Shown: in pieces, positions 3,578 to 64,000 of the stretch
Layout: the number at the start of each line of letters is the position of its first letter
Numbering within the stretch: the stretch's first letter is position 1
Assembly (NCBI GenBank): GCA_963752285.1
Contig: CAVVXN010000001.1
Location: 672,001-736,000 of the forward strand
Reading direction: 5' to 3'
Length of the DNA stretch: 64,000 bases
DNA from: an uncultured Planctomycetota bacterium
Lineage (GTDB): Bacteria > Planctomycetota > PLA2 > JAEUHO01
Position numbers and translations under genes: made by a program
Notes under the pieces: generated by a model
Told to the model about the DNA's origin: nothing
What the model saw: the letters and a program-made list of their open reading frames with translations, nothing else
The model's database searches: none

Positions 3578-4291
3578 TCAGTCCCAGCGTTCGCGGTGGA
3601 GGTTCGCCTCGGGGATCTCGCGGCGCCGCGCGAGGTCGAGCGCCAGGTCCACGAAGTCCGCGGATCCGCAGGCGTAGACGAGCGTGCGCTCGGGGTCTCG
3701 GGCGAGCGCTTGGAGGAGCGTGGCGTCGATGCGACCCCGGCGGCCCGTCCAGGGGGCGCCGTGCGGCGCGCGCGTGACGGTCGGCGCGTACGTGAACCAC
3801 GCGTGCCGGCGTTGGAGGCGTTCCATCTCGTCCCGGTAGATCAGGTGCTCCTCGACCTGCACGCTGTGCACCAGGACGACGGGGTCGGTGCGGCCGCGCT
3901 CGTCCGCCTGGCGGACGAAGGAGCGGTAGGGCGAGATCCCCGAGCCGTTCGCGAAGAGCACCACGTTCCGACCCGGCTCCGCGCGGATGCGGAATCGGCC
4001 CAGGGGACGCGACACCTCGACCGTCGCCCCCACCGGCAGCGCGTAGAGATGCGCGCCGAAGTCGCCTGCGCCGCGCACCGTCACCTCGACCTCCGGGAGC
4101 TCGGACGGGCTGCTCGAGATCGAGTACGCGCCCCCGGAGGGCGGAGGCGCCGCGGCGTCGTGGACCCACACGTGCTGCCCGGGCTCGAACCGGAGGTCCG
4201 GCGCGGCGGCGGCGTCCAACCCCAGACGGATCGAGCGGTCGATCGACGTCTCGTCGTGGACGCGGAGGATCCGGGCGGGCAGGCGGACCAC
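3578..4291 (-). CDS. FAD-binding ferredoxin-NADP reductase-like oxidoreductase (start uncertain)
   Basis: FEPGQHV, AYSISSSP, PLGRF, LFANGSGISPYRS, VYACGS, terminal HRERWD. Confidence 0.85.
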   Translation of the reverse strand: MVRLPARILRVHDETSIDRSIRLGLDAAAAPDLRFEPGQHVWVHDAAAPPPSGGAYSISSSPSELPEVEVTVRGAGDFGAHLYALPVGATVEVSRPLGRFRIRAEPGRNVVLFANGSGISPYRSFVRQADERGRTDPVVLVHSVQVEEHLIYRDEMERLQRRHAWFTYAPTVTRAPHGAPWTGRRGRIDATLLQALARDPERTLVYACGSADFVDLALDLARRREIPEANLHRERWD

Positions 4292-4455
4292 GGGGGGCTC
4301 CGGGCGCCCCGGGGGGCGTCCCCGGGGGGCGCCGCCCCTCGTACCACGTGCGGCCGGGCCCCGACCGCGGCGTCCGGGCGGCGTGGACCGCGCGCGTCGG
4401 ATCGGGCGGGAGCCCGCGGGGTCGTAGGGCCTTCGGGTATCCTCCTCGCCCGTAC

Positions 4456-4896
4456 ATGCCGAGACTCGTGATCCAGAAGGGCGAAGCCGCGGGTCAGGAC
4501 CGCATCCTCGGCGGAGAGTGCGTCCTGGGCCGACACCCGACCGTCGACTTCGTGATCGACGACACGCTCGTCTCGCGCCGCCACTGCAAGGTGCTCTCCG
4601 TCTCGGGCCACTGGGTCGTGGAGGACCTCGGCTCGACGAACGGCACGCTCGTGAACGGCCAGCGCACGCGCCGCGCAGGGCTCCGCGACGGCGACGTGAT
4701 CCAGATCGGTTCCACGCAGCTCCTCTTCGTGCAGAAGGACCTCCTCGACGCGATGGGGCACGGGAAAGCGCAGGCCGCGCCGGTGCCCCCGTCGATCCCG
4801 GAGGTCGCGGTGCCCCCGCCGGCGGTCGCCGCGCCCGCCCCTCCGACGTCCTCGCCGAAGCCCGCCGCGCCCGTGCCCCGCCGACGCCGGCGCTGA
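4456..4896 (+). CDS. FHA domain protein with Pro-rich tail
   Basis: LGRHP...VSRRHC...EDLGSTNGTLVNG...LRDGDVIQIG. Confidence 0.92.
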   Translation: MPRLVIQKGEAAGQDRILGGECVLGRHPTVDFVIDDTLVSRRHCKVLSVSGHWVVEDLGSTNGTLVNGQRTRRAGLRDGDVIQIGSTQLLFVQKDLLDAMGHGKAQAAPVPPSIPEVAVPPPAVAAPAPPTSSPKPAAPVPRRRRR

Positions 4897-23886: not shown

Positions 23887-25556
23887 CAGACCTTCCGGCT
23901 GCGACGCAGCGTCTCCTCGAGCACCGTGCTGACCTCCGCGGTCTCCTTCTCGTCGAGGTCGAGGAGGTCGCGGAGCGCCTCCGCGATGGGAGGCAGGTAC
24001 TTCGTGATGTAGTCCGTCTTGCGCTGGGCCTCGGCCAGACGGCGGCGCTTCCGGATGAACGAGCCGACCCGACGGCCGACCTCCTGGAGGCCGAGCCGGA
24101 TCTCGCGCACGATCTCGTCGTACGACGCGACGGCCTCCTTCGACTCGCTCGTGAAGGGGACCCAGACGCTCGCGACGTGGACGAAGATCGCGAGGGGGCC
24201 CACGGGGAGGCTGCCCTTGGGCTGCTGGAGATCGTACGAGCGCCACGACGTCGAGACGACCGCCTTCGTCATGGCGCACGCGCCACCCTGGTAGAGCAGG
24301 GGAACCCGGTTCGCGAAGCGGAACACGCGCGCGGGCTGGTCGCCGGGCAAGGGCTCGCCGTACGCGAGCCCGACCTCCACCTGGAAGGGGTGGCCCCGGT
24401 ACACGGACGGCGCGCGGGTCACCGACTCGTAGAGCGCGGCCTCGACCTCCTTCTTGAGACCCTCCTTGATGGCCTCCTCGCCGATCGGGGAGAGGCAGTC
24501 CGTGGGCGGCGCCATCACCTTGACGGTGTTCATCGCCTGGTGGAGCTTCTCGGCCTGGCCCCGCATCACCTTGCGCGGCGACACGTTCTCGGGCAAGCCG
24601 GCCTCGACGAGGATCTCGGCCGCGACGCGGTCGCTGACGCGGCAGAACTCCTCCTTCAGGAAGGTGGAGACGCGCCGCGCGTTCGTCGCCGAGAGGAGCT
24701 TCATGAGCGTCCCGAGCTCGACGCCGTACGGGTGCGGCTGGATCTCGCGCGGCGGCTCGGGGATCGTCTGGATGGCGCGCACGAAGACGTGGGGGAGCTG
24801 GTCGCCGGGCGCGAGGAACCGGAGCAGCGCGTGGGGATTCGCGAGGGCGGTCTGGCGGAGGTACTCGAAGACGCTCTTCTGCCCCGTCTGGTACCGGCCC
24901 TCGAGCTCGATCTCGAGCCGGGTCCCCCGCGGGTGCGGGAACTCGTCGAGCTCGCTCTCCTTCACGATCTGGGGCTCGTTGCGGCGCGTGTCGATCTGGA
25001 GCTCGAAGTGGTTCGCCTTCTTGCGCGGTCCCGTCCGGGTCGTGATCAGGATCGGCATCCCCGTCGTCAGCTGCCCGTACAGGGCCGCCGCGGAGATGCC
25101 GATGCCCTGCTGGCCGCGGCTCATCCGGAGCCGGTGGAACTTCGAGCCGTAGAGCAGCTTCCCGAAGATGCGGCTCACCTGCTCTTTCACGATGCCGGGA
25201 CCGTTGTCGGTCACGACGAGACGGTAGCGGTCCGTGGTCCCGGCGGGGCCCCGCGACCGCGCGGCGGGACGCCCGTCGCCGTTCCCGTCGCCCGTGGCCG
25301 TGCCCTGCCGCACGAGGGCGAGCTGCACCTCGATCTCGGGGAGGATCCCGGCCTCCTCGCAGGCGTCGAGCGCGTTGTCCACGGCCTCGCGCACCGCCGT
25401 GAGGAGCGCCTTCGAGGGGTTGTCGTAGCCGAGGAGGTGCCGGTTCTTCGCGAAGAACTCGGCGACCGAGATCTCCCGCTGCGTCCGGGCGAGCTCCTCC
25501 GCGGTGGCGCGGAGGCCCTCCTGCTCGGCGGATCGGGAGACGCGGTGGCGGACCAT
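23886..25556 (-). CDS. top6B: DNA topoisomerase VI subunit B (GHKL ATPase)
   Basis: EISVAEFFAKN, REAVDNALDACE, DNGPGI, GSKFH..SRGQQGIGIS, RFANRVPLLYQ, VPFTSESKEA; stop overlaps the top6A start (TGATG). Confidence 0.96.
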   Translation of the reverse strand: MVRHRVSRSAEQEGLRATAEELARTQREISVAEFFAKNRHLLGYDNPSKALLTAVREAVDNALDACEEAGILPEIEVQLALVRQGTATGDGNGDGRPAARSRGPAGTTDRYRLVVTDNGPGIVKEQVSRIFGKLLYGSKFHRLRMSRGQQGIGISAAALYGQLTTGMPILITTRTGPRKKANHFELQIDTRRNEPQIVKESELDEFPHPRGTRLEIELEGRYQTGQKSVFEYLRQTALANPHALLRFLAPGDQLPHVFVRAIQTIPEPPREIQPHPYGVELGTLMKLLSATNARRVSTFLKEEFCRVSDRVAAEILVEAGLPENVSPRKVMRGQAEKLHQAMNTVKVMAPPTDCLSPIGEEAIKEGLKKEVEAALYESVTRAPSVYRGHPFQVEVGLAYGEPLPGDQPARVFRFANRVPLLYQGGACAMTKAVVSTSWRSYDLQQPKGSLPVGPLAIFVHVASVWVPFTSESKEAVASYDEIVREIRLGLQEVGRRVGSFIRKRRRLAEAQRKTDYITKYLPPIAEALRDLLDLDEKETAEVSTVLEETLRRSRKV

Positions 25557-40920: not shown

Positions 40921-41274
40921 TCAGCGCGTCGGAAACGCCCGGGCGAGCGTGGTCTCGGCCAGGCGGAGCGCGTGGCGCTTCGCGCGCGGGACCTCGCCGA
41001 GCGCCGCCTCGATCTCGGCGCGGCCGACCGCCGTGGCGCCGGCGGTCCGGCCCACGACGAGCGTCGCGAGGGCGCTCCCGACCGCGATCGCGCCCGCGCA
41101 GCCCGTGACGGCGAACCGCGCGTCCACCACCACGCCCGCCTCGACCCGGAGGTCGAGCCAGAGTCGGTCGCCGCACGCCGGGTCCTCGGCCTCGCCCCGG
41201 TGCGTCGCCCCGTCGAGCCGCCCCTGGCGGCGTGGACGTTGGAAATGGTCGAGGAACGCGGCCGCGTACTCCAT
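40921..41274 (-). CDS. IscU/NifU-N-like Fe-S scaffold protein
   Basis: Y....LDHFQRPR..G, ACGDRL, GC..AIA.GS, KRHALRLA. Confidence 0.85.
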   Translation of the reverse strand: MEYAAAFLDHFQRPRRQGRLDGATHRGEAEDPACGDRLWLDLRVEAGVVVDARFAVTGCAGAIAVGSALATLVVGRTAGATAVGRAEIEAALGEVPRAKRHALRLAETTLARAFPTR

Positions 41275-41329
41275 CGGCCGCATCGTACGACGGCTCGACC
41301 GCCGGGGCGGGCGCGCGTACGATCCCGCC

Positions 41330-41953
41330 ATGGCGCGTCTCGTCGGTACGGAAGGCACCCTCACCGGGCGGACGTTCGAGATCGATCCCGGCCTGACGCT
41401 CGGTCGCGAGGGCCACAACGACATCGGGATGCCCGCGAACCGCCACGCCTCGCGCGACCACGCGAAGGTCTGGAAGGACGGCGTGGCGAGCTGGGCGGTC
41501 GCGGACCTCGGCTCCACGAACGGGACGTTCGTGAACGACGACAAGGTGATGCGTCGTCCTCTGAAGGACGGCGACCTGATCCGGATCGGCGACGAGACCT
41601 TCCGCTTCGAGCTCGGGGAGGAGGACCGGCCGAAGCCGAAGGCGAAGCCGGTCGAGGAGAAGCCCGACCTCGCGGCCGTGCTCCGCGGCGAGGTCAAGCC
41701 CAAGCCCGTGGCGACCGGCCTCGGCGCGGTCGGCGCCGACGCGCTGCAGGTGAAACAACGCGTGCTCCAGTACCGGAAGAAGGGCGCGCGCGGCAGCCCG
41801 CTCACCGTGGACTACGGTCAGCTCGCCGGCCTTCGCAAGTGGCTCGTCATCGTGTTCGCGATCGGCGTCCTCGTGGCGATCTTCCTTCTCTCGAAGGGCG
41901 TGACCGAGCGCGCGCGTCCGCCGCTGCCCGAGCTCCCGCCGACCGGGCGCTGA
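41330..41953 (+). CDS. FHA domain protein with C-terminal TM helix
   Basis: LGRE...ASRDHA...DLGSTNGTFVN...LKDGDLIRIG; TM WLVIVFAIGVLVAIFLL. Confidence 0.9.
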   Translation: MARLVGTEGTLTGRTFEIDPGLTLGREGHNDIGMPANRHASRDHAKVWKDGVASWAVADLGSTNGTFVNDDKVMRRPLKDGDLIRIGDETFRFELGEEDRPKPKAKPVEEKPDLAAVLRGEVKPKPVATGLGAVGADALQVKQRVLQYRKKGARGSPLTVDYGQLAGLRKWLVIVFAIGVLVAIFLLSKGVTERARPPLPELPPTGR

Positions 41954-42116: not shown

Positions 42117-43343
42117 ATGAAGAAGATCGCCGTGAAGAACCCCGTCGTCGAGCTCGACGGCGACGAGATGACCCGCGTCCTCTGGCAGTTCATCCGCGAC
42201 CGCCTGATCCTGCCGTACCTCGACGTCCGGCTGCTGTACTTCGATCTGGGGATCGAGAACCGCGACGCGACCGACGACCAGGTCACGCACGACGCCGCGA
42301 AGGCGATCAAGGAGCACGGGATCGGCGTCAAGTGCGCCACGATCACGCCCGACGAGGCGCGCGTCGAGGAGTTCGGGCTGAAGAAGATGTGGAAGAGCCC
42401 GAACGGGACGATCCGCAACTTCCTGGGCGGCACCGTGTTCCGCGAGCCGATCCTCTGCCGGAACGTGCCGCGGCTCGTCCCCGGATGGACGAAGCCGATC
42501 GTGATCGGCCGTCACGCGCACGCCGACCAGTACCAGGCGACCGACTTCACGACGAAGGGCGCCGGGCGCCTCGTGATCCGCTTCGAGCCGAGGAACGGGG
42601 GGAAGGCGGACGAGCACGAGGTGACGGTCTTCGAGGGCGACGGCATCGCGCTGGCGATGTTCAACACGGACGAGTCGATCCGCGGCTTCGCGCACGCGTG
42701 CATGAACTACGCGCTCGACATCCGTTACCCGCTCTACATGTCCACGAAGAACACGATCCTCAAGCGCTACGACGGACGGTTCAAGGACATCTTCCAGGAG
42801 GTGTACGACCGGGAGTACCGCGCGAAGTTCGAGAAGGCCGGCATCTCGTACGAGCACCGCCTCATCGACGACATGGTGGCCCAGACCATGAAGTGGGAGG
42901 GCGGCTTCATCTGGGCGTGCAAGAACTACGACGGCGACGTGCAGTCGGACAGCATCGCGCAGGGCTTCGGGAGCCTCGGACTCATGACCTCGGTGCTGAT
43001 CACGCCGGACGGCAAGACGGTCGAGGCCGAGGCCGCGCACGGGACCGTGACGCGCCACTTCCGCATGCATCAGCAGGGCAAGAAGACGAGCACGAACCCG
43101 ATCGCGTCGATCTTCGCGTGGACCCGCGGCCTCGCGTACCGCGGCAAGTTCGACGGAAACGACGAGCTGGTGCGCTTCGCGCACACGCTCGAGAAGGTGT
43201 GCGTGGAGACGGTCGAGTCGGGCCGCATGACCAAGGACCTCGCGCTCCTCGTCCACGGCAAGAAGCTGTCGGACGACGACTGGCTCACGACGGAGGCCTT
43301 CCTGGCCGCGCTCGCCGAAGGGCTGGAAGCCAGGCTCGCCTGA
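42117..43343 (+). CDS. icd: NADP-dependent isocitrate dehydrogenase (IDH1/2-like subfamily)
   Basis: [57 protein letters not shown]. Confidence 0.98.
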
Positions 43344-43617
43344 TCGACGCGCGGCGCGCGGGGGAGGGGCCGCGACCGACCCCTGCCCACGCCCCACGCC
43401 CACGCCCCACGCCCCACGCCCCACGCGCACGGGAACGAGCCCGAGCGCGCGACCCGAAGCGCGGGCGTGGGGCGTCGAGGGGGTCTTCGGCCCTCGCTCC
43501 CCTCTCCCGAGCGCGCCGGCCCTCGGCCCGCGAGAGCGCGCTCCCTCTGGCGCTCGTGACGGAGGCGGGCGTGGGTAGACTCCGGTGCGGGCGCTCGGGG
43601 CCGGACGGAGGCGCGCC

Positions 43618-44517
43618 ATGCGGGTACCGGGACGCGGGATCGTCGGGACCGCTCTCTTCCTCGGGGCCCTCGCGGCCGGGGCGCTGGCGAAGGACGCCCG
43701 GCCGAGCGCTCGCGACGGCTTCACGAGCCTCGTCGCCATCGTGACGCCCAGCGGCGAGGCGGCCCACCCGGAAGCGTGGCCGGAGGCTCTCGTCTCGCAC
43801 CGCGACTGGCGCGGCGCGCCCGAGCAGGTCCAGGCCTGGCGTCGTGAGGGCGTGGCGCGGCTCGCCGCGGCCGAGGTGCTGAAGGTCCGCGAGGACCACG
43901 ACGACGCGTACGTGCGGGTCCGGCTCGCCGACGGCGAGGCCGAGGTGCCGCTCCGGTGGACCGCGGGGCGCTGGGCGCTCGGCGCGCCACGCGAGTGGCT
44001 CGTCCGGGGCGCGGCGCTGGACGCCGCGAATGGCGAGGCCGCGGCGACGATCCGCCTCGCGGCGTTCACCGACCCGGACTCCTACGGCCCGAGCGCGTTC
44101 TCCTTCACCTACGTCACGCAGGACCCGAAGGCGTGCCTGAATCGGATGGACGTCTGGTACTGCCGGAACGGGGACCTCCACCGCGCGGGAGACGGCGGGT
44201 TCCAGGACCTCGGTCGTGGGCGTCTCGAGAAGGCGGGCACGATCGGGCTCGGCGGTCCGTGGACGGACACGGTTCGGCCCCGCAAGGGCGGTCTGTACGT
44301 GCTGCACGTGCGTCGGCCGGGGCGCACCGACTTCTTCGTACGGCTTCGCGCGACGGCGGTGAGCCGGGAGGAGGTGAGCCTCGAGTGGAGTCTCCTCTCG
44401 CTGGGCGACGGGGCTCCGGCGTCCATCCACGAGGCGCAGCCGTGGCACGCGACGGACCCGAACGTCGGCGAGCCCGGCGCGGACGGCGCGCCGGGTCTCT
44501 GCGGAACGGGCGGGTAG
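43618..44517 (+). CDS. Hypothetical exported protein
   Basis: GGAGG RBS; signal peptide ...LGALAAGALA; GC3-biased codons. Confidence 0.72.
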   Translation: MRVPGRGIVGTALFLGALAAGALAKDARPSARDGFTSLVAIVTPSGEAAHPEAWPEALVSHRDWRGAPEQVQAWRREGVARLAAAEVLKVREDHDDAYVRVRLADGEAEVPLRWTAGRWALGAPREWLVRGAALDAANGEAAATIRLAAFTDPDSYGPSAFSFTYVTQDPKACLNRMDVWYCRNGDLHRAGDGGFQDLGRGRLEKAGTIGLGGPWTDTVRPRKGGLYVLHVRRPGRTDFFVRLRATAVSREEVSLEWSLLSLGDGAPASIHEAQPWHATDPNVGEPGADGAPGLCGTGG

Positions 44518-44743: not shown

Positions 44744-45259
44744 TCAGTTCCCGAAGACGTCGTCCAGGGTCTCGGCCGAGCCCTTCTCGAACTCGCCGGC
44801 GTCGAGCGTGAGGCGCGAGGTGGGTCGCCCCGTCTCCTTCTTGCGGAAGATGTCGCCGAGGCGCTTCGCCGACTCCGCGGCGTAGAGACGCACCATGCCG
44901 ATGGTCGTCGTGTCCTCGAAGAGCGCCGTCAGCAGCGCGCGATCGCCCACCAGGGAGAGCTGGATGTTCCCGCTCCGTCCCTGGTGGAAGAGCGCGGTGA
45001 AGTCCTGCTCGCCGAACTGCTTCGCGAGGGCCTTCGTGGCCGCGAACGAGCCGGCCACGAGCGCGCTGATCGTGTCGAGGTCCACGCCTTTCGTCGCGCC
45101 ACGCGCCGTGATCATGTGACCGTCCTGATCGACGAGCAGGGCGCACTTCGCCGCGCTCTTCTTCAGGAAGGCGTCCATGATGGCCTCGATGGCCGAGATG
45201 TCCTCCTCGTAGAACACGAGGGCCTGCTGGCGGAGGTCCTGGTCACGGATGCTGCTCAT
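44744..45259 (-). CDS. mglB: Roadblock/LC7 protein, MglB-like GAP
   Basis: LVFYEED, ALLVDQDG, SALVAGSFAAT.ALAK..GE..F..LFHQG, T.IGMVRL, C-terminal LDDVFG helix as in myxobacterial MglB. Confidence 0.9.
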   Translation of the reverse strand: MSSIRDQDLRQQALVFYEEDISAIEAIMDAFLKKSAAKCALLVDQDGHMITARGATKGVDLDTISALVAGSFAATKALAKQFGEQDFTALFHQGRSGNIQLSLVGDRALLTALFEDTTTIGMVRLYAAESAKRLGDIFRKKETGRPTSRLTLDAGEFEKGSAETLDDVFGN

Positions 45260-45286
45260 GGCGTTCTTCCTGCTCGGTTCTTGCGG

Positions 45287-46312
45287 TCAGACGTGCGACA
45301 CGACGAAGTAGATGGCCCCCGCGATCAATCCGGCGAGGGCGAGGAAGAGGGGGATCTTCGCGCCCATCCGCGGCCGGTTGAGGCCGCGCATGCTCACCAC
45401 GCGGTCCTGCATCGAAGCGTGGGGCGCCTCGACGCGGGCGGACGGGGCGGGCGACGACGGGCGTAGCCGGCTCTTCGGGGCGGGCGACGACGGCTGCGGG
45501 CGCGCGGGCTCGTCCTCGACGGCCGTGGCCGCGCCGGCGGTGTGCCGCGCGGGCGCGGCCGCGGCGGCCGCGATGGCGGGCGTCGCGGGGCGAGCGGCGG
45601 GTGAACCGGTCGGTGCGGAGACGACGGGGGTCGCGGACGCGGGCTTCCGAACGGGCGGCGGCGCGGTGTGCGTGGGGCCGACGGGCGCGGGACGGGCCGC
45701 GGCCGGCCGCGGGCGCGGCGCGGCGAGACCGCCCTTGTTCACGCTCTCGAGGACGCGTCCGGCGAGGTCCTTGAGCGTCGGGAAGACGCCCTCTCCGCGC
45801 GGCGCGATGGCCTCGTGGAACGGGAAGCCCCAGGTGTTGATCTCGCGCTGGAGGTCCTCGATCGCCATCGCGTCGGGGAGGTCCCGCTTGTTGTACTGGA
45901 TCACGATCGGGACGTCGGAGAGGGACTTCCCCATCTCCTTCAGGTTCTCCTCGAGGTCCGAGAACGACTCCTTGTTCTCGCGGAGCTTCGCGGTGCTCGA
46001 GTCGGCGACGAACACGATGCCGTCCACGCCCTGGAGAACGAGACGACGCGTCGACTTGTAGTAGATCTGGCCGGGAACCGTGTAGAGCTGGAACTTCGTC
46101 TTGATGCCCGCGATCTGACCCAGGTCGAGGGGCATGTAGTCGAAGTAGAGGGTGCGCTCGCCGGTCGTCGCGATCGAAGTCAGCTCACCACGAGACTCGG
46201 CAGGCACCTTGCCGTGCACGAGCTCCAAGTTCGTCGTCTTCCCGGACATTCCCGGCCCGTAGTAGACGATCTTGCACTGGATCTCCTTCTGCGCGAAGTT
46301 GATCTGGACCAT
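45287..46312 (-). CDS. mglA: MglA-family small GTPase with Pro/Ala linker and C-terminal TM anchor
   Basis: KIVYYGPGMSGKTTN (G1), ERTLYFD (G2, Arg finger), YTVPGQ (G3), NKRDL (G4), AIAPRGEGV (G5); tail IPLFLALAGLIAGAIYFVV. Confidence 0.93.
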   Translation of the reverse strand: MVQINFAQKEIQCKIVYYGPGMSGKTTNLELVHGKVPAESRGELTSIATTGERTLYFDYMPLDLGQIAGIKTKFQLYTVPGQIYYKSTRRLVLQGVDGIVFVADSSTAKLRENKESFSDLEENLKEMGKSLSDVPIVIQYNKRDLPDAMAIEDLQREINTWGFPFHEAIAPRGEGVFPTLKDLAGRVLESVNKGGLAAPRPRPAAARPAPVGPTHTAPPPVRKPASATPVVSAPTGSPAARPATPAIAAAAAAPARHTAGAATAVEDEPARPQPSSPAPKSRLRPSSPAPSARVEAPHASMQDRVVSMRGLNRPRMGAKIPLFLALAGLIAGAIYFVVSHV

Positions 46313-46416
46313 CGATCGCTCCCACTCTTTTTCCCTGGCACCCGCGGCGTCTGGCCCCCCTGTTCTCGGGCAGCCGGTTTCCGGACTCCGCTTTTCGGCT
46401 CAATCGTCGGACTTCC

Positions 46417-46770
46417 TCAAGCGACGAGCTCCGCCTCCCGCTCCACGCGGTGTGCGGCGCTTCGGATCTCGATGCTTCCGGGACCGATCTCCAGGCGGGC
46501 ACCGAGCAATACGAGGAGGTAGGCGGGGCCGGCCTCGACGAGGATGACCTTGCCCTGCTCCGCGGCGACCTCGACCTGGTTGAACGCGTCGAGGCCCGCG
46601 TCGCGGAGGCTCTTGCCGATCTCGCGTACGATCGCGGCCCCCAGGGCGGAGAGTCGCTCGACGTCCACGCCTTCCCGGACCGCGCTCGCGATGAGCAGGC
46701 CGTCCTTCGACAGGACGACGCTGCCGCGGCCCGAGATCGTGCCGTTCAGCTCGGCGAGGATCTCCTTCAT
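46417..46770 (-). CDS. Roadblock/LC7 protein (MglC-like)
   Basis: GSVVLSKDGLLIAS...LSALGA...EQGKVIL; 117 aa; ATG overlaps the upstream TGA. Confidence 0.88.
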   Translation of the reverse strand: MKEILAELNGTISGRGSVVLSKDGLLIASAVREGVDVERLSALGAAIVREIGKSLRDAGLDAFNQVEVAAEQGKVILVEAGPAYLLVLLGARLEIGPGSIEIRSAAHRVEREAELVA

Positions 46771-47873
46771 CGCTTCCCTCCGAGGCTGCCTTCGAGGTGG
46801 ACCGAGACGCGCTCCCACAGCCGCTGGGGCTCGGGGTTCTGGTTCCAGCGCGCGCCGGTCACGACGCCGCCCACCTCCCCGACGGCGACGATCCCGAACG
46901 GTCCCTGGATCGTGCAGCGGCGGAACGCGCCGAGGTCGAACTCGCGGGCGTAGCGCGCGACCATGCGCGCCACCGTCCGCGTGACGTCCACGAGGCCCTT
47001 GTCGCTGCCCTCCGCGCGGGGGTTGACCGATTCGCCGTCGGGCGTCCCGCGCACGTGCGCGATGAGGGTGCCGCCACGCTGCAGCATCACGATCTCTGCG
47101 GCGGAGCCGGCCTCCACCAGCGCCCGTGCCGCCCGTTCCGCCCGGTCCTCGTCGAGACGGCTCACGCGGCTTCGGCGGCTCCGCAGGGGCCAGGTCGTCG
47201 GCTCGCGCACGAGCGCGCCTTCGACCTCGATGCGCTCGAACAGCCCGTCGTGCGACGTGGGCGCCTCGCCGGACGCGATGCCCTTCAGCTTCTCGAGCAC
47301 GGGCTCGAGGAGCGGATCGCCCTCGGCGATCGCCTCGAGGTCACGGACGACGGCCGCGAGCGCGCGGTCCGCGCCGGTGCAGTAGTACAGCTCGGCGAGG
47401 AGGAGGCGCGGCTTCACGGCCTCGGTGTTCAGGGCGGCGGCGCGGAGGAGCCGGCGCTCGGCGCCGTGCGCGTCGTTCGCCCTCAGGTCCTCGAAGAACG
47501 CCTGCAGGCTCATCTCGCCGAGCAGGAGGTGCGCCGCATCGCGGTCGGGATGGGCGTTGGCGTAGGCGAGCGCCTCGTGCCGGGCCTCGGCGAAGAGACC
47601 GAGCTCGAGGTAGAGCGAGATGAGCTGCTCGTAGGCGCGCGCGTCCTCGTTCCGCTCGATGCGCGCCTTGAGGCTCTGGATGCCCGTGCGGGCCTGGGCC
47701 CGCCGAATCGTGAGCTCGAGGTCGTGGAGCGGGTCCGCGTCCGGGTAGAGCTCGAGGCCCCGCTGCACGATCTTGCGGGCCTGATCGAAGTCCTCCGCCG
47801 CGAGGCGGCGCTGCGCCTGCTGGATCAGCTTGTCCAGCGAGGCCCTCGAGAACAGGTCTCCAATCCGTCCCAC
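46767..47873 (-). CDS. TPR-repeat protein with C-terminal roadblock-like domain
   Basis: TPR-like helices (GLELYPD, AYEQLISLY, AHLLLGE, PRLLLAELY); C-terminal EFDLGAFRRCTIQGPFGIVAV resembles the roadblock beta-sheet. Confidence 0.75.
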   Translation of the reverse strand: MGRIGDLFSRASLDKLIQQAQRRLAAEDFDQARKIVQRGLELYPDADPLHDLELTIRRAQARTGIQSLKARIERNEDARAYEQLISLYLELGLFAEARHEALAYANAHPDRDAAHLLLGEMSLQAFFEDLRANDAHGAERRLLRAAALNTEAVKPRLLLAELYYCTGADRALAAVVRDLEAIAEGDPLLEPVLEKLKGIASGEAPTSHDGLFERIEVEGALVREPTTWPLRSRRSRVSRLDEDRAERAARALVEAGSAAEIVMLQRGGTLIAHVRGTPDGESVNPRAEGSDKGLVDVTRTVARMVARYAREFDLGAFRRCTIQGPFGIVAVGEVGGVVTGARWNQNPEPQRLWERVSVHLEGSLGGKR

Positions 47874-48271
47874 CGGGTATCTCCGCGGGCCTCGGCCACG
47901 GGGGCCGGGGCCAGGGGGCCTATCGACCAGCGGGCCGGCCCGGATGAAGCGCGGAGGCCGGAGTCCGCCTCGCGAGGCCCGGGCGGGACCGAGGCGCCCC
48001 CCCCGCGCGCGGTCCCCGCCCGCACGGCCCTCAGGACCCACGAGCGGCGCGACGTGTTCTTGACCCGCGCCGGTGCAAGGCCGACTTCCGATCGCTCGAC
48101 GATCGCGCCCTCGTCTACCGGGCGTCCTTCGCGCACCGGGGCCCCGAGGACCCGGCGGGCGGAGGAAGCGACCCGGAAGCGGGTCACCGACGACGAATCA
48201 CGAGCCGATCGGGGCCCGGCGTGCCGAGGGCGGCGCGGCCCACGAAGCCCACGAAGCCCACGAAGCACGCG

Positions 48272-51200
48272 CTAACGCGCGACCGCGACGAGGTGCCCCT
48301 GGGCGAACACGTACACGGAGCCGCCCAGGGGGAGGAGGGGGCTCGTGGCCGAGGCGCCGTCGATCCCGGTCTCCGAGAGCGGGCAGCGCCAGGCCGTCAC
48401 GTCGGGGGCGGCGAGGTCCACGGCGCGGAGCACGGCGTCCCGGTCGAGGGCGTACACCTGGTCGCCCTGGCCCGCGACGGTCGTCGCCCCGTTCCCGAGC
48501 CCGGCGAGGCGCACGGTCTTGGCGTCCCGGGCCATCCAGTGGACGCCGTCGCTCTCGATCCAGGCGACGCCCGTCGGCGAGACGTAGGCGTTCGCGGAGA
48601 GCGGCGCGGCGTGTCCCGCGGGCACGAGCGTTCCCTCGGCGGTCAGCACGCGGGCCTCGGCGTTCGCGCCGCCCAGGAGCACGGCGCCGTCGCCGAGGGG
48701 CAGAGCGAGCAGGAGGCCGCGCGCCGACGAGGCGAGTTGCTTGACCTCGCCGGTGCTCGCCTGGAAGAGGTACGCGTCCCCGCGCACGGTCGTCAAGAGG
48801 AAGCCTCGCTTGCTCCCGTACGGATGCTGCGCAGGCGCGCCGCCGATGGACTTGTGCCACGCCGACTTGCCCGTCGCGAGGTCGTAGCCGTACACGTTGC
48901 CGCGTTCGTCCACGACCACCACGACGCCCTCGAGGAGCGCGGGCTCGTGCTCGATCTGACCGAGCGCCTGCACCTCCCAGGGCTCGCCTTCGAGCGGCCG
49001 CACGATGAGCGTGCGCTGGCCCACGATGCGCCACTCGACGCCGCCGGCGAGCGTGCCCCCCGAACGGACCGGCTCGTGGCGCTTGAAGTCCTTCGGGGCC
49101 TCCAGGGAGCCGTCGTCGGGCGCCACGGGCTGGAGCGCCTTGCCGTCTTCGGTGAGCAGCACCGGGATGTCGTTCGAGGCCCACAGCGCGCGGTACGGGC
49201 CGCGCAGCGGCGTGACGGCCCAGCGCGGGCCCTCCGGCAGGGACTCGTGGCGGAGCGGCGACCAGCGCGCGGCCGCCGTGGCGTCCGAAGCGATGGCGTC
49301 GAAGTCGGGCAGCGTCACGTGCTCCGGCACGTGCCCGGGGAGCCGCAGCGACAGCTCGGTCGGGCCGAACGGCGAGTACTCGAAGGTGCACGGGGTCGTG
49401 AGCCCGGTCGGCTCGTCGCCGAGCCACACCGCGGCCGCCGCGGGCTCGGTCTCGACGTGGACGGGCAGGCGCACCTCACGTGTCAGGTCGCTGTCGAGCT
49501 GGTGCGCGAACAGCGCCACGCCGAGCTGGAAGGCCTTCACGACGTCGTCCGAGGCGCGGGCCGCGTCGATCTGCTTCCGGGTCTCCTCGAATTCCGCCGT
49601 GTACCGGTGGACGTGCTCCAGGAGCAGGTCGGCGCGCGCCGCGAGGGCCTCGTCCGTCATCGCGAGGTTGCGGGCGAGGCGCAGGCTCTTGTCGGCCTCG
49701 CGGAACCGTCCAGCCGCGTGCGATGCCTCGCCCTTGGTGAGCGCGACCTTCGCTTCGGTCTGCGCGTTCGTGACCGCCTCGTTCGCCTGCGTCCGGAGCG
49801 CCTCGAGGCGCGCGCGCAGGTGGTTCAGCACGGCGAGGGTGCTCTCGCGATGGTCGGTCGCCTGGTACTGCTCGATCTCGGTCGCCAGGCCGAGCACGAC
49901 GCCGTTGGCCGACTCGACCTCGTGGTCCACGGCGCGCGTCATGTCGATGGCGGCCTTGCCGAGGCCCTCGTCGGGCGCGTCGGCGTTGCGTGCCTTCGCG
50001 AGACGTCGCACGAACTCCTGGACCAGCGTCACGGTCTGCTGCTCCGCCTGGTCCACGGCGTGCTCCGCGCGCGCCTGGACCTGGTGGATGGACCGTCCCG
50101 CTTCCTGGTTGTACGTCCACCACGCCCCCGCCAGCCCGAGCAGGACGAGGCCGAGGACGACGACCGCGACGGCGAGCCGCTTCTTCTGCCGGTGCTTGCG
50201 CTGCTCGCCCTCGATCAGGTGCAGACGCCCCCGCGCGTCCGCGCGGGTCGGGTCGAGCTGCAGCGTGCGACGGAGCAGGTCCCGCGCCGGCGACGTCCGA
50301 CCTTGCGCGAGCAGGTCCTCGGCCCGGCGGAAGAGCGCGACGGCGGCCTCCGCGCGGTCTCCGCCCGAGGCGTAGAGGTCGGCGAGGACGAGGAGGTCCT
50401 CGCTCGGCGCGTCGCCGGTCTGCACGAAGGCCCGCAGCCGTTCCGCGGCCTCGAGGGGCTGCCGCGCCGTCACGGCGGCGTGGATCAGCGTGCGGAGCGC
50501 CTCGAGCGCCTGGCCCTGCCGGTCGGTGAGCCACGGCCGGTTCTTCACGTAGTAGTCGGTGAGGCGGGCGGCCGAGCCCATCTCGCCCTTTCGCAGGTCC
50601 ATCGCGCGGCGGAGCGCGTCGAACACCCCGATCGGCTTCACGTCCTCGGCCTTCAGGGCGTACGTCTCGAGCTGGAGCGCCGCCTCCTCACGCCGGCCGG
50701 CCGCCTCGAGCGCGTCGGCGTAGCGGATCCACGCCTCCGGCGGCGCGTCGCCGCGGTCGATGGCGCGTCGGAGGAGCGGCAGGGCGCGGAGCGACTCGCC
50801 CCGCGAGAGGAGGTCCTCGCCCCGCGTCAGGAGGTCCTCGGTCGCGACCGGACGGACGCCGCCGCCGTGGAGCAGCGCGGCGACGACCTGGATCACCGTG
50901 AGGTCGTCCACGTCGCTCGCCTCGACGACCTGCTCGAGCGTGCGATAGCCGTCGATCGAGTGGACGACGGGGTCGGCGAGAGCGGGATCGACCTCCTCGG
51001 CCTCGAGCGCGCCCGCGACGTCCACGCCGATGCCGGTGCCCTCGTACACCTCCTCGGTGCTGGGCACGACCTGCGAGAGCTCGGCCCACTGGTCCATCTT
51101 GCGCGTCAGCTCGAGCAGGAGGGCCTCGACGACGATCCCCGGCTCGATCGGACGCCGGGGCCGACCGTCCGGCCACTTGTCGGTGCCGTCGGGCGCGAGG

Positions 51201-51598
51201 ATCTGGCCGTCCGCGAACTCGAAGCGGTTGATCGCGCGGAGCTGGAGCCTGAGGAAGCGCTCGTGGACCGAGTGCTCGACCGCCTCCTCCAGGACCGGCT
51301 CCTCGAGGACGCCGAGGTCGAGGAGGATCCGGCCGAGGTACTCCCCCGACGCGGCCTGGATCCCCTGCGCCCGCTCGAGACGGTCCTCCGCCACGAGGCC
51401 GCGCCGGCGGACCACCCGGAGCAGCGCCCGGCTGGCTCCGGCGTCACCCTCCACGAACGCCGCCCGACCCCGATCCACGTGGATCGTCCGGGCTCCGCGA
51501 TCGGTCTCCAGTACCAGCGTCCCGACCTTCTGGTTGAAGGCGAGCATCTGGAGGAGCTCCCGGAGGTTGAAGGTCTCCAGAGTCCCCTTGATCGTCAC
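48272..51598 (-). CDS. Large bitopic protein: DUF4388 - TPRs - TM - coiled coil - PEGA - PQQ-type beta-propeller
   Basis: IKGTLETFNLRELLQMLAFNQKVGTL (DUF4388); TM LAVAVVVLGLVLLGLAGAWW; VETEPAAAAVWLGD...TTPC (PEGA); GNVYGYDLATGKSAW (PQQ repeat); GAGGA RBS. Confidence 0.85.
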   Translation of the reverse strand: MTIKGTLETFNLRELLQMLAFNQKVGTLVLETDRGARTIHVDRGRAAFVEGDAGASRALLRVVRRRGLVAEDRLERAQGIQAASGEYLGRILLDLGVLEEPVLEEAVEHSVHERFLRLQLRAINRFEFADGQILAPDGTDKWPDGRPRRPIEPGIVVEALLLELTRKMDQWAELSQVVPSTEEVYEGTGIGVDVAGALEAEEVDPALADPVVHSIDGYRTLEQVVEASDVDDLTVIQVVAALLHGGGVRPVATEDLLTRGEDLLSRGESLRALPLLRRAIDRGDAPPEAWIRYADALEAAGRREEAALQLETYALKAEDVKPIGVFDALRRAMDLRKGEMGSAARLTDYYVKNRPWLTDRQGQALEALRTLIHAAVTARQPLEAAERLRAFVQTGDAPSEDLLVLADLYASGGDRAEAAVALFRRAEDLLAQGRTSPARDLLRRTLQLDPTRADARGRLHLIEGEQRKHRQKKRLAVAVVVLGLVLLGLAGAWWTYNQEAGRSIHQVQARAEHAVDQAEQQTVTLVQEFVRRLAKARNADAPDEGLGKAAIDMTRAVDHEVESANGVVLGLATEIEQYQATDHRESTLAVLNHLRARLEALRTQANEAVTNAQTEAKVALTKGEASHAAGRFREADKSLRLARNLAMTDEALAARADLLLEHVHRYTAEFEETRKQIDAARASDDVVKAFQLGVALFAHQLDSDLTREVRLPVHVETEPAAAAVWLGDEPTGLTTPCTFEYSPFGPTELSLRLPGHVPEHVTLPDFDAIASDATAAARWSPLRHESLPEGPRWAVTPLRGPYRALWASNDIPVLLTEDGKALQPVAPDDGSLEAPKDFKRHEPVRSGGTLAGGVEWRIVGQRTLIVRPLEGEPWEVQALGQIEHEPALLEGVVVVVDERGNVYGYDLATGKSAWHKSIGGAPAQHPYGSKRGFLLTTVRGDAYLFQASTGEVKQLASSARGLLLALPLGDGAVLLGGANAEARVLTAEGTLVPAGHAAPLSANAYVSPTGVAWIESDGVHWMARDAKTVRLAGLGNGATTVAGQGDQVYALDRDAVLRAVDLAAPDVTAWRCPLSETGIDGASATSPLLPLGGSVYVFAQGHLVAVAR

Positions 51599-51791
51599 GT
51601 AAACGTCCTCTCGGATCGCATTGCGACCCGATGCCGCCAGCCGTAGACTGGCCTCTCGGGTCCGGTCGGCCCTCCTATCGGCGCGAGTCGGACCTGCGCC
51701 TGAGCCCTTGCGCCGCCGGGGCCCCTGCCCGGCCAACGAGAGACCCCGACATCCCCGTGGCCGCGTGGCGGGGGGGACGAGACCGACCCGG

Positions 51792-52331
51792 ATGAAACGG
51801 CGGACGGGACCCATCGCCGCGACGCTTCGCTGGCTCCGGGCCTTGCTGTTCACGGCCAAGGCCCGGCTCCTGCTCCTCCGCGGGGACCGGCCGCGCGCCA
51901 TCGCCGCCCTGGAGGCGGCCGTGGCCACCCGGCCGTGGGCCTTCCGTCCCCTCCTTCGGTTGGCGAGGGCCTATCTCCTGACCCGGGACACCTGGCGGGC
52001 CCACCGGACCCTGGCGCAGGCCCGCGAGGCGCACCCCGAGAGGTTCGCCCGCGTGGTCCCGGGCTGGCTCCGCCGCCAGGACCTCGACCTCGACGTCCTC
52101 GGCCAGGTGCTCGCCCCCGGCGTGCTCCGCCCGGGCTCGGGGGGACGGGTGCCCGCCACGGCGCCGACGCGGTCGCTCTCCGGGCGGCCCGTGCGCCCCG
52201 GGAGCCTGCCCTGGGGGGACTGCACGAGTCTCGACGAGTACACGCGCTTCCGGGCCATGCCCCCGATCACGGCCGCCGAGCGGGCCTCGATCGACTGGGA
52301 CGCGCTCCTCGACGACCTCCTCGACGACTGA
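51792..52331 (+). CDS. Hypothetical TPR-containing protein with acidic C-terminal motif
   Basis: AIAALEAAVATRPWAFRPLLRLARAY TPR-like; C-terminal PWGDCTSLDEYTRFRAMPPIT...IDWDALLDDL. Confidence 0.65.
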   Translation: MKRRTGPIAATLRWLRALLFTAKARLLLLRGDRPRAIAALEAAVATRPWAFRPLLRLARAYLLTRDTWRAHRTLAQAREAHPERFARVVPGWLRRQDLDLDVLGQVLAPGVLRPGSGGRVPATAPTRSLSGRPVRPGSLPWGDCTSLDEYTRFRAMPPITAAERASIDWDALLDDLLDD

Positions 52332-62477: not shown

Positions 62478-62521
62478 CCGTGGAGAACCCGTGGGAACCC
62501 CGTGGCGACCCCGTGGCGACC
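62478..62521 (+). repeat. Four direct repeats of CCGTGG with 11-bp period upstream of selA
   Basis: CCGTGGAGAAC, CCGTGGGAACC, CCGTGGCGACC, CCGTGGCGACC at 62478, 62489, 62500, 62511. Confidence 0.8.
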
Positions 62522-62541
62522 CGCACGGTATCCTCGCGCGC

Positions 62542-64000
62542 GTGACCGATCCCGCGCCCGACGTCCTCCCGCCGCTCCGCCCGCCCTCCCCGCCCGAGGG
62601 CGCGGGCGACCCCGCGGCGCTCGTCCGCCGGCTCCCGCCGGTGAACGACGTGCTCGGGGCCCTCTCCCCCGACGACCTCCGGTACGCGCCGCGCGAGGAG
62701 TGGGTGGAGGACGTGCGCCAGGCGCTCGCCGAAGTCCGCGCCCGCGTGCTCGGCGGCGAGATGGGGCCGTTCCGACTCGAGCGCGCGGCGGCGACGGGCG
62801 CGGTCCTCGAGTCGGCCCGCCGGCGCATCGCGCGTCGCCGTGACCCCGGGCTCGTGCGCGTCGTCAACGCGACCGGCGTCGTGCTGCACACGAACCTCGG
62901 CCGCGCGGCGCTTCCCGAGGCCGCGCTGGTGGCGCTGGCCGAGCACGGTCGCGGGTACCAGCTGCTGGCGGCCGATCGCGAAACGGGCGAGCGCGCGCCG
63001 CGCGAGCGGCACCTCGAGACGCTGCTCGCGCGTCTCACGGGCGCCGAGGCGGCCACGGTCGTGAACAACAACGCGGCCGCGACGATGGTCGTGCTCGCCG
63101 CGCTCGCGCGGGACCGCGAGGTGATCGTCTCGCGCGGGCAGCTCGTCGAGATCGGCGGCGCGTACCGGATCCCCGAGGTGATGGCGCAGTCGGGCGCGAG
63201 GCTTCGCGAGGTCGGCACGACGAACCGTACGCACCTCAAGGACTACGAGAACGCGATCTCGGACGCCACCGGGCTCCTGCTCCGCGTCCACACGTCGAAC
63301 TACCGCGTCGAGGGCTTCACGACGGACGTGTCGCTCGCCGACCTCGTCGCGCTCGGGAAGGCCTACGGCGTGCCCGTCGCGGACGACCTCGGCAGCGGCG
63401 CGCTCGTCTCGCTGGCCGCCCACGGCCTGCCGGGCGACGAGCCGCTCGTGCGGGAGAGCGTGGCCGCGGGCGCCGACCTCGTGACGGCGTCGGGCGACAA
63501 GCTGATCGGCGGGCCGCAGATGGGCATCGTCGTCGGCACGCGCGAGAGCGTGGCGCGCGTGCGCGCGCATCCCTTCTATCGCGCGATCCGTTGCGACAAG
63601 CTGTCGCTCGTCGCGATGGAGGCGACGCTGAGGCTCTTCCTCGACGAGGCGAGCCTCGCCCGGGTCCACCCGACGACGCGTGCGCTCGTGCTCTCGGTCG
63701 AGGCCCTGGAGGCGCGCGCGCGCTCGCTCGCGGCGCGCCTCGGTACGCTCGGCGCCGCGCGCGCGTACGAGATCGGCGTCGAGGTCGTGGACGACGCCGT
63801 CGGCGCCGGCTCGCTGCCGACCGAGCGCCTGCCGGGCCGCGCCGTCGTCCTGAGGGCCCGCGAGCGCGAGGCGGGCGAGGTGGCCCGACGCCTCCGCGCG
63901 GCGCCCGTTCCCGTCTTCACGACCGTGCGCGACGGAGGCGTGCGGTTCCACGTGCGGACGCTGCTCGACCGTGACGAAGACGACGTCGTCGCGGCGGTCG
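62542..64000 (+). CDS. selA: L-seryl-tRNA(Sec) selenium transferase, partial (runs off window end)
   Basis: Read manually: VVNATGVVLHTNLGRA, VNNNAAA, SRGQLVEIGG.YRIP, EVGTTNRT, DDLGSG, SGDKLIGGPQ. Confidence 0.96.
   Translation, partial: MTDPAPDVLPPLRPPSPPEGAGDPAALVRRLPPVNDVLGALSPDDLRYAPREEWVEDVRQALAEVRARVLGGEMGPFRLERAAATGAVLESARRRIARRRDPGLVRVVNATGVVLHTNLGRAALPEAALVALAEHGRGYQLLAADRETGERAPRERHLETLLARLTGAEAATVVNNNAAATMVVLAALARDREVIVSRGQLVEIGGAYRIPEVMAQSGARLREVGTTNRTHLKDYENAISDATGLLLRVHTSNYRVEGFTTDVSLADLVALGKAYGVPVADDLGSGALVSLAAHGLPGDEPLVRESVAAGADLVTASGDKLIGGPQMGIVVGTRESVARVRAHPFYRAIRCDKLSLVAMEATLRLFLDEASLARVHPTTRALVLSVEALEARARSLAARLGTLGAARAYEIGVEVVDDAVGAGSLPTERLPGRAVVLRAREREAGEVARRLRAAPVPVFTTVRDGGVRFHVRTLLDRDEDDVVAAV

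Follow-up and report, generated by a model that had tools for sequence, protein, structure and literature searches.

Five co-oriented genes, here called G1, G2, G3, mglA and mglB, occupy the minus strand at 44744-51598 of a 64,000-nucleotide stretch of DNA from an uncultured Planctomycetota bacterium (hereafter the window; positions 672,001 to 736,000 of contig CAVVXN010000001.1, GenBank assembly GCA_963752285.1, or G000:C1:672001-736000 in our numbering). They encode a small GTPase, MglA, which is predicted to be tail-anchored in the membrane, its Roadblock-family partner MglB, and three uncharacterised proteins: a membrane-spanning protein with a PATAN domain (G1), a fusion of tetratricopeptide repeats (TPRs) with a Roadblock domain (G2) and a single-domain Roadblock protein (G3). 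We consider it probable that this cassette is an operon, conserved in Planctomycetota, that encodes a membrane-confined MglA/MglB switch, which exerts spatial control over an envelope machine. Judged by sequence, the cassette is real; its function is a proposal. Among bacterial Ras-like polarity switches, MglA/MglB is the one understood best, and its mechanism in Myxococcus needs a soluble GTPase that moves between the cytosol and the poles. An MglA fixed to the membrane, present in over 50% of the Planctomycetota genomes sampled and accompanied in every case by the same four partners, would imply a different mode of spatial control. A first-pass annotation, made from the letters of the window, had read the five genes as a candidate signalling system; the five open reading frames (ORFs) lie where it had placed them, and their G+C content at third codon positions (GC3) of 0.86-0.95 is of the coding type. 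The genome amounts to 4.64 Mb in 5 contigs and is 89% complete, and the window has a G+C content of 74%.

A Group 1 MglA with a predicted C-terminal membrane anchor

Pfam assigns the window MglA to Arf/Ras, and its residues 2-195 align end to end with the MglA structures of Thermus (PDB 3t12, E 1.4e-68) and Myxococcus (PDB 5ymx, E 1.1e-67), the identity to the latter being about 65% when counted by eye over 193 aligned residues. In an alignment of the window protein with 78 homologues, GxGxxGKT, [E/D]RT and NKxD are each present in 79/79 sequences and TVPGQ in 78/79. Group 1 of the MglA family was defined by Wuichet and Sogaard-Andersen in 2014 (PMC4316618). Of the features used there, the intrinsic Arg beside the threonine of the GTPase G2 motif is found in all 79 proteins, including that of the window; TVPGQ as the GTPase G3 motif is present in the window MglA as well; and mglB lies within four genes of mglA, at a distance of 27 nt in the window and likewise close by in 55/55 loci. 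The size limit with which that survey worked, less than 240 aa, is exceeded by the window MglA (341 aa), whose extra length consists of a linker and a transmembrane (TM) helix, with no second globular domain. Window MglA thus has every catalytic hallmark of Group 1, as far as sequence motifs define them.

The helix at residues 320-338 has a mean hydropathy of 2.43 and is the sole hydrophobic segment of the protein, and the tail that contains it stays in frame with a coding GC3 of 0.94. Among 67 complete MglA orthologues, 66 have a terminal TM helix at most 12 aa from the C-terminus; the sole exception is a 207-aa ORF in locus L070. Orthologues have a median length of 335 aa (range 294-480) and linkers of median length 115 aa (range 74-266), and it is the helix that is conserved among them, not the sequence of the linker. 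The stretch that leads into the helix carries a net charge of +1.8 and the one behind it +0.26, fitting a cytoplasmic G domain. With a single TM segment at the extreme C-terminus and its bulk predicted to be cytoplasmic, MglA has the layout of a tail-anchored protein, which bears out the membrane anchor proposed in the first-pass annotation. In Myxococcus, mglB precedes mglA; the reversed order seen here weighs less with us than the predicted tail anchor, which is the most unusual feature of the cassette.

In two single-contig genomes of 9.3-9.5 Mb (G037 and G198) the cassette MglA ends in a Lys-rich, Phe-spaced tail without a helix (L089:8140-9012 and L091:8279-9088). This tail could be a polybasic or amphipathic membrane-binding element, which fits selection for membrane contact. 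Each of these two genomes has 9-10 MglA-like matches.

Conservation of the cassette in Planctomycetota

A scan for MglA with one genome per species returned 250 relatives, of which the best 80 loci were analysed. All named records among the loci of these best 80 of 250 relatives belong to Planctomycetota or to unclassified bacteria, in agreement with the non-myxobacterial lineage expected at first pass. In tblastn comparisons the four partner genes lie at constant offsets from mglA across the relatives, also in those whose G1 has an identity of just 22-25%. A census with alignment-built profiles against six-frame ORFs, restricted to loci with a long enough flank, located G1 near mglA in 62/62 loci, G2 in 74/74, G3 in 78/78 and MglB in 55/55; three of the 74 G2 and six of the 78 G3 genes lie slightly outside the range of positions first allowed and are counted. 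At loci with full flanks, all four partners share one strand and one order (46/46). The linkage of the DUF4388 (PATAN) and TPR-Roadblock genes to mglA/mglB in relatives, on which the first-pass annotation had staked its proposal, thus holds. The cassette is also present in the complete genomes G180 and G221, where MglA is of the TM form. Complete single-contig genomes with the cassette probably come from cultured strains.

Median gaps between the genes are -4 nt for G2-G3 (40 loci), 33 nt for G3-mglA, 25 nt for mglA-mglB and 103 nt for G1-G2. In the window, the G2 stop and the G3 start share an ATGA, as had been noted at first pass, and the remaining gaps are 27 nt (mglA-mglB), 104 nt (G3-mglA) and 398 nt (G1-G2). 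The ATGA overlap recurs in 19/40 loci, and an overlap of some kind in at least 32/40. G2 and G3 are, by their sequences, cytoplasmic and translationally coupled. The G1-G2 gap of the window, unusually long by comparison with the median of relatives, holds three tandem copies of the 9-base unit GCTTCGTGG (minus strand) at ~48240-48270, directly past the G1 stop codon.

Could the five genes simply have stayed side by side through common descent, without a shared function? Related genomes have their gene order in common, and the 80 loci belong to relatives. However, the linkage persists where G1 identity has fallen to 17-25%, while the flanks change between clades. All-against-all clustering of the flanking ORFs in the 80 loci yielded housekeeping families that differ per clade (GcvH, GcvT, methionyl-tRNA synthetase, lipoate ligase, acyl-CoA dehydrogenase and CTP synthase among them). 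The linkage also outlived rearrangement, since in family f14 the five genes are together in the permuted order G2-G3-mglA-mglB-G1 (L092:7676-14504 and L093:7635-14610). Moreover, no G2 is found without MglA, and the coding overlap of G2 and G3 is conserved. Shared ancestry as the whole explanation is, in our judgement, scarcely credible. The sole recurring exception in the flanks is a divergent small TPR gene directly upstream of G1, present in 38/80 loci including the window, which is a candidate sixth component. In 11 related loci an FHA gene lies downstream of mglB (e.g. L021:4209-5066), which may reflect either synteny within the lineage or some loose connection with the cassette.

Among 301 evenly sampled Planctomycetota genomes, the MglA G domain is found in 174, and among the 191 of high quality in 96. 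About 42% of the sampled genomes, including whole families of complete genomes, have no MglA. The G2 profile (E<=1e-40) matches in 120/301 genomes, always as one copy. Of the 30 families listed, the nine that lack MglA have no match to it; the threshold is also missed by some families with MglA, f14 for example, in which G2 is nonetheless present. In the ESM Atlas, clusters of 365-395 aa labelled 'MglA family' are commonest in Planctomycetota, so long MglA proteins are already auto-annotated in databases.

A second MglA-like domain, 26-40% identical, is found in frames of ~720-830 aa in several relatives (G002, G003, G004, G007, G010, G017, G019-G024, G026, G028 and G029); it recurs in the family and order, and is not present in the window's own genome. 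There, a weak tblastn match (C5:1363209-1363649, 22% identity, E 1.6e-5) in a 710-aa frame was not counted as a second MglA. The frame (G000:C5:1361595-1363724; L087:3596-5725, minus strand) has HisKA as its only Pfam match (24.7 bits against a gathering score of 26.9), and the MglA-like match covers its N-terminal 147 residues, so that the protein may be a fusion of a GTPase-like domain with a histidine kinase, or the match may be due to chance.

Three distant Roadblock domains

MglB matches Robl_LC7 of Pfam (E 2.7e-12) and the solved MglB of Myxococcus (PDB 6h5b, E 3.6e-25). Its score against the NCBIfam equivalog NF052242, which models the Thermus type, is 97.1 bits, below the cut-off of 200. 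Among homologues of the protein, the interface helix hardly varies and the C-terminal L-D-x-L-F is conserved. By this similarity, MglB is the cognate Roadblock homologue of the GTPase-activating protein (GAP) of MglA. G3 also matches Robl_LC7 (E 3.4e-10); the nearest PDB matches of its profile are generic and Asgard Roadblock proteins (E 1e-14), with MglB reached at E 2e-3 only and LAMTOR2 weakly, at E 0.03.

The sequence of G2 itself returned a weak TPR match and no Roadblock match in the first Pfam scan. Nevertheless, hhalign aligned residues 244-366 of the G2 profile with the G3 profile (probability 93.6%, E 2e-7), and 15/55 G2 homologues match Robl_LC7. An AlphaFold2 model of G2 (pLDDT 90.3, pTM 0.80) consists of eleven helices followed by a C-terminal alpha-beta-beta-alpha-beta-beta-beta-alpha domain, which Foldseek superimposes over 126 columns on a solved Roadblock homodimer (9jue_F) at a TMt of 0.77 and an rmsd of 2.8 A. 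The C-terminal domain of G2 is thus a Roadblock/LC7 domain by profile similarity and predicted fold, and the TPR-Roadblock fusion named in the first-pass annotation stands. The three Roadblock domains of the cassette are mutually distant: G3 and MglB align with an hhalign probability of 93.9%, and G2 and MglB with 11%, so the G2 domain is closest to that of G3. The cassette contains the only MglA of the genome and both of its Pfam Roadblock matches, and tblastn revealed no close paralogues of G1, G2 or G3 there. In the ESM Atlas, TPR-Roadblock proteins also appear in Gemmatimonadota (score 0.94), which is a hint.

An anchored GTPase together with two non-identical Roadblock domains brings to mind an endomembrane or trafficking-like system, in which the GTPase would sit on a Roadblock heterodimer, analogous to Rag-Ragulator, and shape or sort invaginated membranes. 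The weak LAMTOR2 match of G3 and the combination of TPR and propeller in one protein, G1, fit this analogy. Yet the likeness is confined to architecture, the membrane is predicted to separate the TPR from the propeller, MglA is of the bacterial Group 1 type, and the flanks of the 80 loci contain no linked gene for a coat, SNARE-like or dynamin protein. We regard such a system as quite improbable.

G1, a bitopic PATAN protein

PATAN is the DUF4388 domain (PF14332). In G1, it scores 60.7 bits against the Pfam cut-off of 25, as proposed at first pass, and is accompanied by TPR matches. From the N- to the C-terminus, profile matches and hydropathy, on which the architecture rests, give PATAN and TPR, one TM helix, a periplasmic helical region, a PEGA-like domain and a PQQ_2/BamB-type propeller. 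All 42 G1 homologues match DUF4388 and PQQ_2 (best E 3.3e-42 for the latter), up to 39/42 match TPR families, 41/42 the BamB model TIGR03300 and 23/42 the AfsK model. The propeller is borderline in window G1 itself (PQQ_2 at 27.5 bits, just under the cut-off of 27.6) but present throughout the homologues. PEGA (PF08308), claimed in the first-pass annotation, has no match in window G1 at E<=0.01, but 14/42 homologues match it, and in the corresponding region of the G1 alignment P719 and A722 are invariant and T735 and P736 nearly so. On its N-terminal side the TM helix is flanked by six basic residues (net about +4), on its C-terminal side by a near-neutral stretch, consistent with an N-in/C-out orientation that places PATAN and TPR (the N-terminal 470 residues) in the cytoplasm and the PEGA-like domain and propeller outside. 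G1 is therefore, by prediction, a bitopic protein of receptor-like topology, the receptor-like character having been proposed at first pass. An NCBIfam match to RodZ (E 2e-4; 21 bits against 208) spans the TM helix and a low-complexity region, and a relationship to RodZ was rejected.

The PATAN domain has an alpha-helical insertion with an MshEN-like motif. The MshEN-type motif for cyclic di-GMP (c-di-GMP) is a tandem RLGxx(L/V/I)(L/V/I)xxG(L/V/I)(L/V/I)xxxxLxxxLxxQ, and the MshEN model NF053729 is matched by 15/42 G1 homologues at E<=0.01 (best E 2.1e-13). When the G1 N-terminus was compared with PDB sequences, nothing significant was found, the c-di-GMP domains of PilF and MshE appearing at E ~0.5 only. 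The alpha-helical insertion in the PATAN domain of Synechocystis resembles the N-terminus of PilB/GspE ATPases (bioRxiv 10.1101/2021.06.11.447907). Window G1 may respond to c-di-GMP through this insertion, which we offer as a lead only.

A proposed mechanism

In the operon that we propose, MglA would reside on the cytoplasmic membrane throughout its cycle, in both nucleotide states, so that switching would alter its binding partners on the membrane and not its membrane residence; the tether is long enough that the G domain might reach over tens of nanometres. The MglB dimer would turn MglA off as a GAP, as in the solved complexes. The Roadblock domains that are mutually closest, the C-terminal one of G2 and that of G3, would pair into a heterodimeric platform, which might regulate or localise MglA or MglB in the manner of MglC or RomY or in that of a guanine nucleotide exchange factor (GEF), while the TPR part of G2 would recruit something further. 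MglC is a paralogue of MglB that binds MglB and RomR and has no GAP activity. In Myxococcus, the GAP is MglB, with RomY as co-GAP, and RomR/RomX act as GEF (PMC9481161). The cytoplasmic PATAN/TPR part of G1 would dock the G2/G3 platform at a place that the periplasmic PEGA-like and propeller part of G1 marks or senses, and c-di-GMP might modulate this docking via the MshEN-like insertion. The output would be spatial control of an envelope machine. A signal that runs from the propeller to the GTPase was inferred in the first-pass annotation, and G1 could equally act as a static landmark or anchor. Among the three uncharacterised partners are candidates for the missing GEF or a scaffold.

Several observations weigh against this proposal. 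The 80 loci were picked by similarity to the window MglA and form one orthologous group, not a set of independent trials. The tail anchor is not universal: in family f14, MglA is a 431-487-aa frame with a long Pro/Ala/Glu-rich tail and no TM helix, so that anchoring may not be the only role of the tether. Furthermore, the genome encodes a distant, orphan protein of G1 architecture (G000:C5:970486-974145; L086:4487-8146), a 1220-aa frame with DUF4388, a helical region, PEGA and a PQQ_2 propeller. Its neighbours are genes for EPSP synthase, SAICAR synthetase, AIR carboxylase and enoyl-CoA hydratase, and neither a GTPase nor a Roadblock gene is close by, so this type of protein can act without MglA. 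As for c-di-GMP, window G1 scores 29.2 bits against NF053729, below the cut-off of 38, and its second MshEN-like motif has neither the leading Arg nor the closing Gln of the consensus. With respect to the output, no pilus, gliding, division or peptidoglycan gene recurs beside the cassette in any clade of the 80 loci. PilT is present in 296/301 genomes, including all listed MglA-less families, whereas MglA is present in ~58%, so that pili need no such module. Finally, a search of the genome, which is 89% complete, gave no match to SgmX.

Candidate outputs of the switch

Type IV pili are the single most likely target of the cassette, although we hold this view tentatively, and FtsZ-independent division, budding or an envelope-growth site is the next candidate, itself possible. 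Both the choice of a division or budding site and the placement of pili are questions of planctomycete biology for which the cassette is a compact, testable candidate.

The closest alternative to our proposal is that the cassette is an ordinary motility-polarity module, in which planctomycete MglA, MglB and an MglC choose the pole or site of type IV pili, and G1 is a PATAN adaptor to PilB/PilC and not a sensor. The TPR proteins SgmX and Bd2492 are effectors of MglA, and the cassette MglA has the Group 1 hallmarks. The genome encodes ten T2SSE-type ATPases as well as PilT. The PATAN domain of Synechocystis by itself binds both PilB1 and the N-terminus of PilC and is membrane-localised (bioRxiv 10.1101/2021.06.11.447907), and PATAN proteins are among the candidates of a screen for regulators of the type IVa pilus in Myxococcus (PMC11580455). 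On the other hand, consistent with the first-pass annotation, the scan of 28 further ORFs of the window revealed none for type IV pili or gliding; these ORFs were picked by a GC3 heuristic that left gaps at 15.8-18.7, 19.5-23.9 and 25.5-28.5 kb. The absence of recurring pilus genes in the flanks, the near-universal PilT and the lack of an SgmX match, set out above, count against a motility module too. In addition, a permanently membrane-bound MglA cannot use the relocation from cytosol to pole on which Myxococcus relies. We judge this explanation possible, though well short of probable.

Planctomycetes are FtsZ-less and have unusual envelopes. A switch that selects the site of division, budding or envelope growth could mark the place of growth or constriction in such cells, with the propeller reading the state of the wall and MglA acting via MreB or wall synthases. 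Indeed, no FtsZ/tubulin-family match was obtained in the 89%-complete genome, whereas MreB is present, and the periplasmic PQQ-type propeller of G1 resembles the propellers of BamB and of the AfsK kinase family. Binding of MglA to MreB has been reported in Myxococcus (PMC4508894). However, no wall or division gene recurs near the cassette. The Planctomycetota without MglA are also expected to lack FtsZ, yet they divide. A site selector of this kind seems rather unlikely to us.

More speculatively, the cassette might represent a planctomycete GTPase system built on the logic of eukaryotic membrane GTPases, with a TM-anchored switch (possibly polybasic in one lineage), a Roadblock heterodimer as platform and a TPR/propeller scaffold, which would specify membrane or envelope sites (budding, FtsZ-free division, invagination) and not motility. 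We think this doubtful.

Organization of the locus and other features of the window

The cassette is flanked on both sides by plus-strand housekeeping blocks (Table 1). In the upstream block, the small TPR gene is accompanied by a prenyltransferase-like gene and a gene for a Cys/Met PLP enzyme. Between 44300 and 52500 no promoter-like site was found, and one terminator-like site, on the opposite strand inside mglA; neither number exceeds that in shuffled sequences. Rfam matched two tRNAs only in the whole window, with no riboswitch near the cassette.

Table 1. Coordinates of the cassette genes, their predicted domains and adjacent genes (window positions)
Feature	Position	Strand	Description
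G1	48272..51598	-	1108 aa, predicted bitopic membrane protein
G1 PATAN/DUF4388 domain	51083..51589	-	aa 4-172; alpha-helical insertion ~aa 55-125 with MshEN-like motif
G1 TM helix	50120..50176	-	aa 475-493, mean hydropathy 2.57
G1 PEGA-like region	49274..49486	-	~aa 705-775
G1 beta-propeller core (PQQ_2 stretch)	48437..48979	-	aa 874-1054
G2	46767..47873	-	368 aa, predicted cytoplasmic fusion of TPR (aa 3-218) and Roadblock (aa 242-364)
G3	46417..46770	-	117 aa, single-domain Roadblock/LC7
mglA	45287..46312	-	341 aa, Group 1 MglA with C-terminal extension
MglA G domain	45728..46312	-	aa 1-195
MglA linker	45356..45727	-	~121-124 aa; 26% Ala, 21% Pro, 12% Arg; predicted disordered
MglA C-terminal TM helix	45299..45355	-	aa 320-338, then 3 residues; predicted tail anchor
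mglB	44744..45259	-	171 aa, Roadblock GAP homologue
Isocitrate dehydrogenase	42117-43340	+	downstream block
Hypothetical gene	43585-44514	+	downstream block
Small divergent TPR protein	51621..52328	+	upstream block; candidate sixth component; TPR_19 E 4.4e-7; start uncertain, probably further downstream

Elsewhere in the window, a homologue of topoisomerase VI subunit B is encoded at 23889-25556 on the minus strand (Topo-VIb_trans, E 1.7e-59); topoisomerase VI is uncommon in bacteria. Two FHA-domain proteins are encoded on the plus strand (4348-4893 and 40949-41950). ARAGORN called a 95-nt tRNA-Arg(CCG) at 4268-4362 (+), which abuts the start of the first FHA ORF and has no Rfam match at the gathering score; it may be a false call, or else a tRNA that is odd or contains an intron. 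A gene for selenocysteine synthase (SelA) at 62491-63996 (+) runs to the window end and implies the use of selenoproteins in the lineage.

Comparison with known systems

The first-pass annotation had suggested that the system could be undescribed, which our literature searches support for the cassette but not for the general neighbourhood. PATAN genes near homologues of MglB and MglA go back to Makarova et al. 2006, as cited in PMC4316618 and bioRxiv 10.1101/2021.06.11.447907, and the 2014 survey describes the association of PATAN with MglA/MglB as occurring 'occasionally', in Groups 1 and 5 (PMC4316618). In the searchable literature we found no description of a fixed cassette or an anchored MglA, although supplementary table S2 of the 2014 survey could list such loci; that survey classified only proteins of less than 240 aa, and its text names no Planctomycetes in Group 1 (PMC4316618). 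As far as the literature was searched, then, the MglA/MglB parts and the PATAN-Roadblock-GTPase neighbourhoods are known, and the predicted tail-anchored MglA and the fixed five-gene cassette are new.

The module of Myxococcus xanthus shares with the cassette a Group 1 MglA (intrinsic Arg, TVPGQ, NKxD), an MglB homologue and an additional Roadblock protein. Its MglA, however, has ~195 aa and is soluble, whereas the planctomycete protein has the predicted tail anchor, and the cassette differs further in its TPR-fused Roadblock protein, its PATAN transmembrane protein and the order of mglA before mglB. No RomR/RomX, RomY or SgmX (the last alone being searched for) was identified, and no motility genes are linked. 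Thermus thermophilus MglA-MglB (3t12) provides the best solved match for MglA, and the interface helix of the cassette MglB keeps small Ala residues as in Thermus; the Thermus pair has neither the tether nor partners of the G1, G2 and G3 types. Compared with the PATAN-MglB-MglA neighbourhoods of the 2006 and 2014 studies, in which PATAN, Roadblock and MglA-family genes likewise occur together, the planctomycete set is a fixed one of five genes and widespread in the phylum, its PATAN domain is part of a bitopic protein of 1100 aa, and its MglA is probably anchored. The actinobacterial conservon CvnA-D also unites a membrane sensor with a Roadblock protein and a GTPase of the MglA family in one operon, described as a membrane-associated heterocomplex (reference list of PMC4316618), but its MglA belongs to Group 2 and has no intrinsic Arg, its sensor is a histidine kinase and not a PATAN protein, and its GTPase is unanchored. 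Finally, eukaryotic Rag-Ragulator and lipid- or TM-anchored small GTPases offer an analogy only, in that they too may be described as small GTPases at a membrane with heterodimers of the Roadblock fold, the homology being that of the shared folds.

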